64,000 nt of DNA, from the NCBI GenBank assembly GCA_050998515.1, contig JBPCQC010000019.1, positions 200,357-264,356 on the forward strand. Direction: 5' to 3'. The notes beneath the pieces were generated by a model that was given only the letters and a program-made list of their open reading frames with translations, searched no databases and was not told the origin of the DNA. The stretch comes from Verrucomicrobiales bacterium (GTDB lineage Bacteria; Verrucomicrobiota; Verrucomicrobiia; Verrucomicrobiales; V1-33). How positions within the stretch are numbered: the stretch's first letter is position 1; each line of letters opens with the position of its first letter. Of this stretch, positions 40,249 to 41,657 are shown piece by piece. The position numbers were made by a program, and so were the translations under genes.

Positions 40249-40997
40249 ACAGCGCCACACTCGCAGTGGTCCTCGACGCTCCGCTGCAAAGCTGGGGCCA
40301 CGCCTCCCAATTCCAGCACCGCACGACTGCCGCGCACCCGACCAAGAGCGGCGTGCTCGGCCTCGTCGCCGCCGCGCTCGGCATCGACCGCAACGCATCC
40401 GATGAAGCCGACCTTCTCGTGCCTTTCGCCGCGCTGCATTTTACCAGCCTGCGCGTGCCGCGGCCCCACCCCCGGCGCAACGAGCGGCTGCTTCCCGTCC
40501 TGCGGCTCGAGGATTACCACACCGTCGGCGGCGGCTACGATGAAGACGACCCTCGCGAGCGACTCTGCATCCCGCGCAAGGCGGAGCGTGGCGGCGTCTT
40601 TGGCACCGTCGTCACCCGTCGCACCTATCTTCAGCAAGCGCGGTTCATCATTTTCATGGAAGGCTACCGCGCCAGCATTGATCGCATCGCGACGGCTCTT
40701 CAGAACCCCGTATGGGGTGTCTGGCTGGGCCGCAAGAGCTGTGTCCCTGCCGTGCCCGTCCAGCCCGTCATTGCCGAGAGCCGCGCGTCGGCCCTCGTAA
40801 TTTTGCTGCGCCGCATCCGCTATCCGCAGCCGGACGCGCCGGAGACGGACTTTGATCGCGAGGAGACCGCGACCGACGCTTCGCAAGCTCACCATTTCCT
40901 GGCAGACCAGCCGCTCGGTTACGGCAGTCGGCAATTCTCGCACCGTGGCATCACAGTCCATCGCGCGCCCAGACCAGCCCCGGGAAGTGGGGAATGA
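40245..40997 (+). CDS. cas5: Cas5e (CasD)
   Basis: ATG at 40245 overlaps the cas7 stop (ATGA). The N-terminus [49 protein letters not shown] parallels E. coli CasD. Confidence 0.85.
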   Translation: [250 protein letters not shown]

Positions 40998-41332
40998 CCG
41001 GTTGCACGGATGATGCCCGTTTTCTATCCTCTGCCGCCATGATTCCTTCCCGCCACGTCCTGCTCGAACGCCTGCGCGCGGCGATGCCGGCGCTGGCCGG
41101 GGAGTTCCCGCTGCGACGCATGGCGCTGTTCGGCTCCGTGGCGCGCGGGGATGCCACCGAGGCGAGCGACATCGACATCCTCGTGGATGTGGACCCGCGG
41201 ATCGGGCTCGGGTTTGTGACGCTCGCGGAGCGTCTGGAGCAGTTGCTGGGGCACAAGGTGGACCTGGTGTCGCGCCGCGCCGTGAAGCCTTCGCTCTGGA
41301 AGCAGATCGAACCGGAGCTGCTGGATGTCTAA
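40994..41332 (+). CDS. mntA: MntA-type minimal nucleotidyltransferase antitoxin (HEPN/MNT module)
   Basis: Carries the NTase motif LFGSVARGDATEASDIDILVD. ATG at 40994 overlaps the cas5e TGA (ATGA); an alternative ATG at 41039 would give a 97-aa product. It overlaps hepT by 8 nt. Confidence 0.8.
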   Translation: MTGCTDDARFLSSAAMIPSRHVLLERLRAAMPALAGEFPLRRMALFGSVARGDATEASDIDILVDVDPRIGLGFVTLAERLEQLLGHKVDLVSRRAVKPSLWKQIEPELLDV

Positions 41333-41657
41333 ACGCGATCCCGCCCTTCTCCTCGAGGACATGCGCGCGGCGCTGGAGAAGATCGCCCGCTACACGGCGG
41401 GGATGCAACGCGCGGCCTTCCTCGCGGATGAGAAGACGGTGGACGCCGTGGTCCGCAATCTGGAGATCATCGGCGAGGCCTCGAAACAGGTGCCGGAGGA
41501 ATTCAAGGCGCTGCATCCCGCCCTGCCGTGGTCGCAGATGGCCGGGCTCCGCAACCGGATCGTGCATGATTACGCCGGGATCGATCTGGAATTGATCTGG
41601 GACATCGTCGGGAACTCGCTGCCCGCCCTGCGCGGGCAGTTGGACGGTCTGGCGTAA
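41325..41657 (+). CDS. hepT: HepT-type HEPN (DUF86) toxin
   Basis: 110 aa. The HEPN Rx4H motif is in the typical context (MAGLRNRIVHDYAGIDLELIWDIV). The gene is downstream of and overlapping the MNT gene. Confidence 0.85.
   Translation: MSKRDPALLLEDMRAALEKIARYTAGMQRAAFLADEKTVDAVVRNLEIIGEASKQVPEEFKALHPALPWSQMAGLRNRIVHDYAGIDLELIWDIVGNSLPALRGQLDGLA

Follow-up and report, generated by a model that had tools for sequence, protein, structure and literature searches.

A HepT/MntA toxin-antitoxin cassette between the effector and adaptation genes of a type I-E CRISPR-Cas locus

Two small open reading frames lie between cas5 and cas1 of a CRISPR-Cas operon in a 64,000-nucleotide stretch of Verrucomicrobiales DNA, which we refer to as the window. 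What does this pair encode, how did it come to occupy that position, and does it act for the CRISPR-Cas system or mainly for itself? A sequence-only reading of the window had taken the pair for a HepT/MntA (HEPN-MNT) module that is translationally coupled to Cascade and might guard it in the manner of CreTA. We evaluated each part of this proposal using profile and fold searches and a comparison set of about 73-75 related species-level I-E loci.

The host locus and the identity of the inserted pair

The window contains an intact type I-E locus, with Pfam matches for all eight signature genes (cse1, cse2, cas7, cas5, cas6e, cas3, cas1, and cas2) and an array with 29-nt repeats (Table 1). The gene order obtained from these matches is cas3-cse1-cse2-cas6e-cas7-cas5-mntA-hepT-cas1-cas2. 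In this I-E clade cas6e precedes cas7, so that the effector genes normally end with cas5. The pair does split the effector genes (cas3 to cas5) from the adaptation genes (cas1-cas2), as had been proposed. Its neighbors are Cas5 (PF09704) and Cas1 (PF01867), with 60 nt between the hepT stop (41657) and the cas1 ATG (41718). Among related loci, Cas1 identity to the window protein reaches 91%. Two of the gene starts in Table 1 are uncertain: the true start of cse2/cas11, whose relatives are 180 aa long, is probably near 37.9 kb, and that of cas6e, whose relatives are 209 aa long, is approximate. Heptamer tracts of the kind found directly upstream of cas1 end 0-20 nt 5' of this gene in 21 loci; the expected number was 0.14.

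Table 1. Features of the type I-E locus, in window coordinates.
Feature	Position	Strand	Evidence
cas3 pseudogene stump, remnant of earlier effector module	32111..32891	+	tblastn with L001 Cas3
cas3 (intact)	33343..36093	+	Pfam Cas3_HD, DEAD, Cas3-like_C_2
cse1/cas8e	36297..37889	+	PF09481, E 2.1e-70
cse2/cas11	37675..38442 (longest ORF)	+	PF09485 over ORF residues 100-237
cas6e, start approximate	38470..39142	+	PF08798 over residues 174-393 of ORF 37955-39142
cas7	39196..40248	+	PF09344, E 1.2e-93
cas5	40245..40997	+	PF09704; identical to annotated 250-aa Cas5/CasD (P0121)
mntA leader, 41 nt, noncoding	40998..41038	+	DNA-level conservation with L005, partly with L001 and L009
mntA, 97 aa, minimal nucleotidyltransferase antitoxin, GSX10DXD	41039..41332	+	PF01909, E 6.8e-12
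hepT, 110 aa, HEPN/DUF86 RNase toxin (predicted)	41325..41657	+	PF01934, E 1.2e-31
Tandem heptamer tract AATCCTA x4.7, directly 5' of cas1	41683..41715	+	TRF
cas1	41718..42605	+	PF01867
Second heptamer tract CACTCAA x4.1, 5' of cas2	42615..42643	+	TRF
cas2	42653..42952	+	PF09707, E 7.3e-23
CRISPR array, 79 repeats of 29 nt, 78 identical	43002..47787	+	Repeat search of DNA; TRF

The open reading frame at 40994-41332 contains the nucleotidyltransferase motif GSVARGDATEASDIDILVD and matches PF01909, and the one at 41325-41657 contains RNRIVH and matches the HepT-like family PF01934 at 109 bits against a cut-off of 23.5. The two overlap by 8 nt at 41325-41332 (ATGTCTAA). All of these features are as the sequence-only reading described them, and Pfam, sequence-profile, and fold matches agree with its assignment of the pair to the MNT and HEPN/DUF86 families. 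The motifs that define this toxin-antitoxin family are RX4HXY, which combines the RNase site with the AMPylated tyrosine, and GSX10DXD (PMC7641770). Both were found, as R76-NRIV-H81-D-Y83 in HepT and as GS-VARGDATEAS-DID in MntA, and both are unchanged in every cas-embedded copy as well as in one that is free-standing. R76, H81, and Y83 are invariant across 28 HepT homologues, and the antitoxin-first order of the two genes is common to all relatives examined.

Searches against solved structures led to the same families. MntA matched PDB 1wot (E 2.4e-11). A phmmer search with the single HepT sequence gave no match among PDB sequences and a profile was required; the profile of 28 homologues matched the Shewanella oneidensis HepT entries 5yep and 6m6u at about 6.4-7.4e-9. 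The AlphaFold2 model of HepT (pLDDT 95) had solved HepT/HEPN toxins as its best 12 Foldseek matches, each with a probability of at least 0.98, and TM scores of 0.69-0.71 against the five best PDB matches. Scores for the NCBIfam equivalogs MntA_antitoxin and HepT_toxin (48.6 and 54.2 bits, respectively) fell below the 60-bit cut-offs, which are naming thresholds built on distant members and not mechanistic features. Both genes are under purifying selection (dN/dS 0.07-0.15 for mntA and 0.12-0.23 for hepT). MntA also matches the PADLOC defence-candidate models PDC-S09, no PADLOC match was found for HepT, and no mntA-hepT paralogues were found elsewhere in the window. By sequence and fold, the pair is a genuine HepT/MntA (HEPN-MNT, type VII) toxin-antitoxin module.

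The window pair resembles the solved type VII modules of S. oneidensis (SO_3166/SO_3165; PDB 5YEP, 6M6U) and Aphanizomenon flos-aquae (PDB 7AE2-7AE9) in its mntA-hepT order, its overlapping genes, both motifs, and the all-helical HEPN fold. However, its proteins are only about 20% identical to the solved ones, and its HepT is shorter (110 aa versus about 133-150 aa). Unlike the solved modules, this predicted toxin-antitoxin pair lies inside a cas operon and has no recognizable promoter of its own. The HEPN-MNT module of A. flos-aquae reportedly lies near a type I-D CRISPR locus.

The start of mntA and the comparison with CreTA

The proposed coupling to Cascade rested on an ATGA at 40994-40997, where an ATG overlies the cas5 stop codon. 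The overlap is present, but this ATG is in frame with mntA in this genome alone and is not where mntA starts. In every relative MntA is 97 aa long and begins about 40 nt past the cas5 stop. The 15-codon upstream extension is out of frame in L005 owing to a 1-nt indel and contains a stop codon in L001 and L009, and the public annotation of this genome has the 97-aa protein on record and not the 112-aa form. Since the extension is not conserved and the annotation has the shorter form, the ATG at 41039 is the true start, which makes the overlap of ATGA with the cas5 stop incidental. The same observations, which leave 41 nt between the cas5 stop and the mntA start, led us to reject a coupling of mntA translation to that of cas5.

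These 41 nt form a leader shared at the DNA level with some cas-embedded relatives (43 of 49 bases at 40990-41038 match L005). It is absent from the free-standing homologue L174, which has an AT-rich upstream region where the window has a short GC-rich leader. A candidate promoter within the leader, TTGCAC-N17-TATCCT, was rejected: it agrees with the consensus at only seven of 12 positions and is not common to the free-standing copy. A scan with a sigma-70-type consensus found no promoter-like site in 32-46 kb, although Verrucomicrobial promoters may differ from this consensus, and the + strand had no terminator-like site from 37.6 to 43.6 kb. The pair lies on the same strand as the cas genes, and neither a promoter nor a terminator of its own was found by this consensus scan. 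The cassette is probably co-transcribed with the cas operon.

The second part of the proposal was an analogy to CreTA, a type VIII RNA toxin-antitoxin system that guards the Cascade genes of Haloarcula, in which Cascade represses an RNA toxin through a crRNA-like RNA. The window cassette has in common with CreTA a toxin physically tied to a type I cas locus and the idea that loss of cas function is penalized. It differs in that both partners are proteins, the antitoxin lies within the module, and a repeat-like element is lacking. A scan of 31.0-43.1 kb for degenerate repeats (at least 17 of 29 bases) gave 11 matches against 12 expected from shuffles, and no Rfam family reached gathering score at any position of the window. 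Of the repeat-like matches, one (17 of 29 bases) lies within mntA at 41168, which is at chance level. CreTA-like logic, whether as a regulatory RNA or as a mode of control, was rejected on these two points: there is no excess of repeat-like elements, and hepT is preceded by a cognate antitoxin that is independent of Cas proteins. Because both partners are proteins and the antitoxin belongs to the module, loss of Cascade would not release the toxin; deletion of Cascade alone leaves mntA in place, so the architecture gives no addiction to Cascade.

The cas5/cas1 junction among related loci

Five HepT relatives with 84-95% identity were looked up (P0002, P0003, P0005, P0007, and P0008), and all lie 26-60 nt 5' of cas1. 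With the window's own, this makes six of six copies, and the relatives come from separate metagenomes. The pair is thus kept at the cas5/cas1 junction in related loci and is not a strain-specific insertion. Beyond this clade, none of the six looked-up relatives with 79% identity or less is near cas genes (P0012, P0015, P0018, P0023, and P0033 among these). One of them, a HepT of 65% identity accompanied by its MntA, is located between the hsdS and hsdR genes of a type I restriction-modification operon (L013). The latter module has the same habit of occupying module boundaries of defence operons, in a different host system and with no CRISPR link. A scan of JGI metagenomes with HepT, which serves as background only, yielded nothing above 65% identity and nothing close to cas genes; none of 80 more distant relatives has a cas gene within 4 kb, although many of these contigs are short. 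Members of the HepT/MntA family occur on 1,507 plasmids. CRISPR linkage is not a family-wide property; only the shallow clade of at least 84% identity is cas-embedded.

The same junction has received other modules. In most loci of the comparison set cas5 abuts cas1 (median gap 12 nt), and toxin-antitoxin-type inserts were found there in nine loci, about 12% of the related I-E loci. These are MNT-HepT (L068), Phd-PIN (L015, L026, L031, and L089), a Phd-like antitoxin only (L035 and L090), DUF2281-PIN (L014), and DUF433-DUF5615 on the opposite strand (L019). A second hotspot is the cas6e/cas7 junction, where ParE-like modules lie on the opposite strand and several have decayed to antitoxin-only remnants. 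The cse1/cse2, cas7/cas5, and cas1/cas2 junctions are almost never interrupted, and the extra DNA at cas3/cse1 in L084, L059, and L022 contains unknown ORFs and a broken cas3 but nothing recognizable as a toxin-antitoxin pair. Judging from these loci, the cas5/cas1 junction is a recurrent landing site for unrelated toxin-antitoxin cassettes in this I-E clade.

The effector genes of the window have a history separate from that of the cassette. Within the cas3 stump, positions 32111-32320 correspond to residues 1-68 of L001 Cas3 (59% identity in tblastn), and positions 32316-32891, in a different frame, to residues 227-418 (82% amino acid and 78% nucleotide identity); the intact Cas3 is 39% identical to L001 Cas3. 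The flanks of the window are L001-like (75-78% nucleotide identity) and the effector genes are divergent. Compared with loci carrying the same cassette, the window effector proteins are only 39-52% identical; related cassettes with MntA 86-94% and HepT 85% identical adjoin Cas5 proteins that are only 44-47% and Cas7 proteins that are only 52-53% identical. The closest relative of the window Cas5 (75%) is in L179, where the cas5/cas1 site is empty. These comparisons indicate that the Cascade genes of the window were exchanged around a resident cassette.

This result also bears on the supposed specific wiring to Cascade, which is not supported when kindred cassettes adjoin divergent Cas5 and Cas7 proteins and the effector module itself was swapped in. 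The idea that MntA is coupled to Cas5 through the ATGA and forms a protein analogue of CreTA, making the Cascade genes addictive, retains the in-frame ATG at 40994 of this one genome. Against it stand the interrupted extension in L005, L001, and L009, the 97-aa form on record, the 44-53% identity of the Cascade genes beside the same cassette together with their replacement in the window, and the lack of a crRNA-like element. We regard it as largely refuted by the comparative data and very improbable.

The cassettes themselves seem to be transferred from one I-E locus to another along with adjoining cas DNA. MNT-HepT loci are spread over three separate Cas1 clades and interleaved with empty sites. 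In the same locus pairs, synonymous divergence is 2 to 3.5 times lower for the cassette (0.19-0.56) than for the adjacent cas1 (0.66-1.15), and beside the cassette of L014 there remain fragments from the 5' end of cas1 and the 3' end of cas5. The left flank of L181 differs, so one simple capture does not explain the history; together with the three Cas1 clades and the lower synonymous divergence of the cassette, this makes a single capture followed by purely vertical descent a poor fit.

A cassette could also be a neutral passenger in one of the operon's few permissive intergenic gaps, with no effect on immunity or on retention of the locus and perhaps in decay. Inserts do fall mainly at cas5/cas1 and cas6e/cas7, junctions with an intergenic spacer, remnants in other loci have decayed, and functionally irrelevant genes have been described in defence islands (preprint 10.1101/270033). 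However, both window genes are intact with invariant catalytic motifs, dN/dS stays at 0.07-0.23 over synonymous divergence of up to 0.56, the cassette outlasted replacement of the effector module, and the enrichment at the junction is far above the expectation for a random small gap. We consider neutrality quite improbable.

Possible roles of the cassette

Our preferred reading, which we consider fairly probable, is that of a self-contained HepT/MntA addiction cassette at the effector/adaptation boundary, a recurrent landing site, which is probably co-transcribed with the cas genes and possibly stabilizes the locus. It would be transcribed by read-through from the cas operon, with mntA translated from the ATG at 41039 and hepT coupled to it through the 8-nt overlap seen in the sequence. 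By analogy to the family, MntA would use its GSX10DXD motif to AMPylate Tyr83 within RX4HXY of HepT and so keep the RNase silent, whereas unmodified HepT would cleave cellular RNA and stop growth. The cassette goes with the cas1 side of this boundary and not with Cascade, whose genes were replaced around it. Its most likely effect would be self-maintenance, as is ordinary for such modules, and as a by-product loss of the cas1-cas2-array part may be penalized. To our knowledge, post-segregational killing has not been demonstrated for type VII modules, in which neutralization is covalent, so we infer the stabilizing effect rather than observe it.

Alternatively, a function under selection in adaptation or immunity could account for the strict position 5' of cas1 and for the fact that RNase toxins have been recruited there repeatedly. 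HepT co-expressed with the cas genes might impose dormancy or abortive infection when a phage or anti-CRISPR shuts down the cas operon or the supply of MntA, or might buy time for spacer acquisition by Cas1-Cas2. Such an arm would agree with the shared strand and apparently single transcription unit, the position immediately 5' of cas1 in six distinct loci, the arrival at one junction of several RNase-type toxins that are not related to each other (HEPN toxins and two families of PIN toxins), purifying selection on both genes, the PDC-S09 match of MntA, and the hypothesis that immunity and dormancy are coupled (PMC3506569; PMC3632139). It is at odds with a module that has its own antitoxin and needs no Cas partner, and whose nearest homologues are free-standing or within a restriction-modification operon. 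Any cassette is present at this site in only about 12% of related loci, some cassettes lie on the opposite strand (L019 and the ParE-like modules at cas6e/cas7), and others persist as antitoxin-only remnants (L035 and several ParE-like loci). In addition, HepT has no PADLOC match, and neither a sensor domain nor a repeat-like regulatory element was seen. On balance, a selected immunity arm seems unlikely.

The earlier suggestion that the arrangement is new applies to the instance and not to the kind. In Sulfolobales, vapBC pairs are interspersed in cas cassettes and have been proposed to maintain CRISPR-Cas (Garrett et al., 2015, PMC4390879). As in the window, these are protein toxin-antitoxin pairs inside or between cas cassettes and functional modules. 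They occupy large variable regions of archaeal type I-A and type III loci and encode PIN toxins, whereas here a HEPN toxin is found in a bacterial type I-E locus, at a precise cas5/cas1 junction reused by several families. Toxin-antitoxin modules have also been noted among CRISPR-associated genes, with the suggestion that they safeguard cas genes (Altae-Tran et al., 2023, PMC10910872), which is a survey-level statement of the same general association. The literature texts that we searched made only general statements of this type and described neither the I-E cas5/cas1 hotspot nor this cassette. By itself, the window pair is an unremarkable toxin-antitoxin module, and modules of this type were already known from such places.

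The comparative pattern goes further: at least four toxin-antitoxin families have used one and the same junction, the cassettes carry adjoining cas DNA with them, an effector module was swapped around a resident cassette, and a second hotspot exists at cas6e/cas7. More speculatively, and with a rather low likelihood in our estimate, the cas5/cas1 boundary and the cas6e/cas7 gap of this Verrucomicrobial and Acidobacterial I-E clade might be selected docking sites. Interchangeable cassettes would then guard the CRISPR locus by means of proteins, or would switch cells to dormancy in step with cas1-cas2 expression, and the G-poor heptamer tracts at these junctions may be a recombination or expression element enabling exchange.

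This pattern offers a natural setting in which to test whether immunity is tied to dormancy or addiction, as has long been proposed. If the cassettes do stabilize the locus, they would help to account for the persistence of CRISPR-Cas systems, which are costly and often lost, and would represent a simple equivalent, made of proteins, of RNA guards like CreTA.

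The type I-E locus and its two-gene cassette

Pfam matches showed that the window, part of a Verrucomicrobiales metagenome-assembled genome, carries a complete type I-E locus on its forward strand, with two small genes, mntA and hepT, in the cas5-cas1 interval. Because cas6e is placed between cse2 and cas7 in the window (38470-40248) and in related loci of the clade, rather than after cas5, cas5 is the last effector gene and normally abuts cas1.

Features of the window in and around the type I-E locus
Feature	Positions	Strand	Remarks
Ankyrin-repeat protein	25796-27547		583 aa, nearly all ankyrin repeats; upstream of the locus
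cas3 pseudogene stump	32111-32891		450 nt upstream of intact cas3
cas3	33343-36093	+	Pfam
cse1	36297-37889	+	Pfam
cse2	end 38442	+	Pfam
cas6e	end 39142	+	Pfam
cas7	39196-40248	+	Pfam
cas5	40245-40997	+	Pfam
mntA	41039-41332	+	97 aa
hepT	41325-41657	+	PF01934
Heptamer tract	41683-41715
cas1	41718-42605	+	Pfam
Heptamer tract	42615-42643
cas2	42653-42952	+	Pfam
CRISPR array	43002-47787		79 repeats, 29 nt each; 78 identical
ORF	52196-57370		1,724 aa; downstream of the locus

A sequence-only reading had named the pair a minimal nucleotidyltransferase and a HEPN/DUF86 protein with an Rx4H motif, and both HMM and structure searches placed the ORFs in these families. The ORF at 40994-41332 has GSVARGDATEASDIDILVD and matched PF01909 and PF18765, and the hepT ORF has RNRIVHDY and matched the HepT-like family (E 1.2e-31); its product is identical to the database protein P0001. 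The family-defining motifs, RX4HXY in HepT, whose tyrosine takes AMP, and GSX10DXD in MntA (PMC7641770), are present as R76-x4-H81-x-Y83 and GS-x10-DID; both are identical across all cas-embedded copies and one free-standing copy, and R76, H81, and Y83 were invariant among 28 HepT homologues. A profile of these homologues matched the solved S. oneidensis HepT (5yep, 6m6u; about 6.4-7.4e-9), pairing GLRNRIVHDY with GLRNIAVHDY. The AlphaFold2 model of HepT was all-helical (pLDDT 95), and its 12 best PDB matches were the HepT/HEPN toxins of S. oneidensis and A. flos-aquae (TM 0.69-0.71 for the five best). MntA resembled the minimal nucleotidyltransferase 1wot (2.4e-11) and was assigned by PADLOC to the defence-candidate family PDC-S09; the PADLOC search with HepT gave no match, and the pair scored 48.6 and 54.2 bits, below the NCBIfam equivalog cut-offs (60 bits). 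By analogy with the family, HepT is predicted to be toxic and to be AMPylated.

The same reading had the mntA ATG overlapping the cas5 TGA and proposed translational coupling to Cascade. The ATGA at 40994-40997 does exist and falls on the cas5 stop, but the real start is ATG 41039. MntA is 97 aa in every related locus, starting about 40 nt past the cas5 stop, and the public annotation of this genome has the 97-aa MntA (MGI8602092.1) and no record of a 112-aa form. The 41-nt stretch from the cas5 stop to ATG 41039 was conserved in the DNA alignment, with 43 of 49 bases identical between related locus L005 and window 40990-41038; the upstream ATG frame has a 1-nt indel in L005 and reaches a stop codon in L001 and L009. 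We thus place mntA at 41039-41332, without translational coupling to cas5. The 8 nt shared by the mntA and hepT ORFs, which are the usual toxin-to-antitoxin coupling, and the 60 nt from the hepT stop to cas1 were as originally read.

Consensus scans found no sigma-70-like promoter at 32-46 kb and no terminator-like site on the forward strand at 37.6-43.6 kb, and the window has a short GC-rich leader instead of the AT-rich upstream region of a free-standing copy, so the cassette is likely co-transcribed with the cas genes. Control by RNA in the manner of CreTA, the RNA toxin-antitoxin (TA) that guards Cascade genes, left no sign: degenerate CRISPR repeats in the operon were at chance level (11 matches, 12 expected), and the Rfam search found nothing. 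We regard a Cascade-coupled, CreTA-like cassette, as originally proposed, as very improbable.

Insertions at cas gene junctions

The comparison set comprised 80 species-representative loci retrieved through their Cas1 (34-92% identity). The order cas3-cse1-cse2-cas6e-cas7-cas5-cas1-cas2 was common to all loci with effector genes recovered, except two from actinobacteria in which cas6e follows cas5, and the cas5-cas1 gap had a median of 12 nt (75 loci with a resolved junction). This junction is a recurrent landing site for TA cassettes, with TA-type inserts in 9 of 73 loci. MNT-HepT was found among the representatives in L068 only, on the same contig as L001. Other inserts were a Phd/YefM-type antitoxin with a PIN toxin (L015, L026, L031, L089), a Phd-type antitoxin alone (L090, and L035 with the toxin truncated), DUF2281 with PIN (L014), and DUF433 with DUF5615 on the opposite strand (L019). 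The junction of L064 holds a 178-aa protein of the 23S-rRNA-IVP family (PF05635; 6369-6905), with no obvious TA pair.

A second hotspot, cas6e-cas7, had about 250-650 nt of extra DNA in 14 loci, at least 10 of which carry, in the opposite orientation, a small antitoxin-like gene (68-92 aa, MSTVxEIEAAI...; L019, L026, L028, L033, L035, L037, L056, L060, L075, L083, L089). A recognisable ParE-like toxin gene (PF24732) follows it in four loci, and the toxin part is decayed in others; L048 has DUF2281-PIN and L047 an ORF6N gene. Interruption was almost never seen at cse1-cse2, cas7-cas5, or cas1-cas2. Between cas3 and cse1, L059 has two ORFs (114 and 127 aa; 1796-2463) in which no TA signature was recognisable by eye.

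Tandem heptamer tracts of 3-6 copies directly precede the start codons of cas1, cas2, and cas7 in many loci of the clade (the window and L014-L093). Their units are G-poor (13% G) and locus-variable (e.g., AAATCCT, AAATCGT, CACTCAA), and among the 74 period-7 repeats detected in 836 kb, 21 stop 0-20 nt short of cas1 on its upstream side (0.14 expected). At empty sites the tract extends through the last cas5 codons, and in L014 and L064 the insert is bordered by a tract on both sides. The tracts might serve as leaders for translation, act as regulatory sites, or mark hotspots of recombination.

Linkage of the cassette to cas1 and exchange of the effector module

Conservation at the cas5-cas1 junction, rather than a strain-specific insertion, was borne out in related loci. 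Of the HepT relatives looked up, the five with 84-95% identity (P0002, P0003, P0005, P0007, P0008), which derive from distinct metagenomes and, in one case, a Chthoniobacter MAG, were all directly upstream of cas1-cas2, and downstream of cas5 wherever the contig extends that far; with the window copy, 6 of 6 examined copies of at least 84% identity are upstream of cas1. Among relatives of 79% identity or less, P0012, P0015, P0018, and P0023 were free-standing pairs, and the similarity of a free-standing 79%-identical copy to the window is confined to the two ORFs. The cas-embedded copies therefore form a shallow subclade within an ordinary, mobile TA family, members of which occur on 1,507 plasmids (951 conjugative). 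No cas genes were found within 4 kb of 80 more distant HepT relatives (44-65%, JGI metagenomes, many on short contigs). A further relative, P0033, is flanked by hsdS and hsdR within a type I restriction-modification operon (L013, 205-3368; HepT 65% identical, with its MntA), again a module boundary in a defence operon.

A selected abortive-infection or dormancy arm would be consistent with a placement strictly upstream of cas1 and with RNase toxins having been recruited repeatedly. Against it, the module has its own antitoxin and free-standing close relatives, some counterparts are on the opposite strand or decayed, and cassettes of any type occupy the junction in just about 12% of loci; we consider such an arm unlikely.

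The other MNT-HepT loci share with the window 86-94% identity in MntA, 85-95% in HepT, 71-91% in Cas1, and 62-86% in Cas2, against 44-47% in Cas5 and 52-53% in Cas7. Judged from these comparisons, the cassette appears to go with cas1, not Cascade, and to move. MNT-HepT loci fell at three separate places in a neighbour-joining tree of Cas1, among empty sites and loci with other cassettes. Synonymous divergence for the same locus pairs was 2 to 3.5 times lower in the cassette (0.19-0.56) than in the adjacent cas1 (0.66-1.15), so its spread among I-E loci is more recent than the divergence of their cas1 genes. The junction of L014 (5929-7001) reads cas5, heptamer tract, cas1 5' copy, cas5 3' fragment, DUF2281-PIN, heptamer tract, full cas1, and the 5' copy (156 nt) is 94% identical to its own cas1. 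It looks like the trace of a past recombination event that joined two I-E loci; the cassette would have come in with flanking cas DNA of another locus, which indicates a possible route. The left flank of L181 differs, so it is the left junction that varies; the placement upstream of cas1 does not.

The cas3 stump matches residues 1-68 and 227-418 of an L001-type Cas3 in different frames (82% aa, 78% nt); it has lost an internal part, shifts frame, and breaks off after about residue 418, whereas the intact window Cas3 is only 39% identical to that of L001. L001 matched the window by blastn at 75% over 41022-42500 (leader, mntA, hepT, cas1) and in weak patches only over 33.3-41.0 kb. L179 carries the nearest relative of the window Cas5 (75%); its junction is empty, the spacer measuring 45 nt, and its Cas1 is 84% identical to that of the window. 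Together these findings indicate that the present effector module was swapped in between stump and cassette. A swap of the whole effector module is hard to reconcile with a cassette tuned to one particular Cascade. That the cassette outlasted the swap, with mntA and hepT under purifying selection (dN/dS 0.07-0.23), also makes a neutral passenger rather doubtful, and less probable than an abortive-infection arm.

Proposed role and precedent

We favour, as the probable explanation, a self-contained type VII TA cassette that lodges at the effector/adaptation boundary, a recurrent landing site, and would be expressed along with the cas operon. MntA would AMPylate Tyr83 of HepT, which when free would degrade RNA. 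The effect on the locus would most likely be self-maintenance, and the cassette may in addition make it costly to lose the cas1-cas2-array segment.

In Sulfolobales, vapBC pairs are scattered through the cas cassettes and have been proposed to serve in maintenance (PMC4390879). A coupling of immunity to dormancy was hypothesised in 2012-2013, and the survey of Altae-Tran et al. (2023, PMC10910872) noted TA modules among CRISPR-associated genes and suggested that they safeguard cas genes. The suggestion that the arrangement was undescribed for I-E stands in part: our literature search, incomplete in coverage, found no earlier description of the I-E cas5-cas1 hotspot, but the kind was known. The HepT/MntA pair of the window is a fresh example of that kind; what may be new is the pattern of hotspots, the evidence that cassettes are exchanged, and the heptamer tracts.
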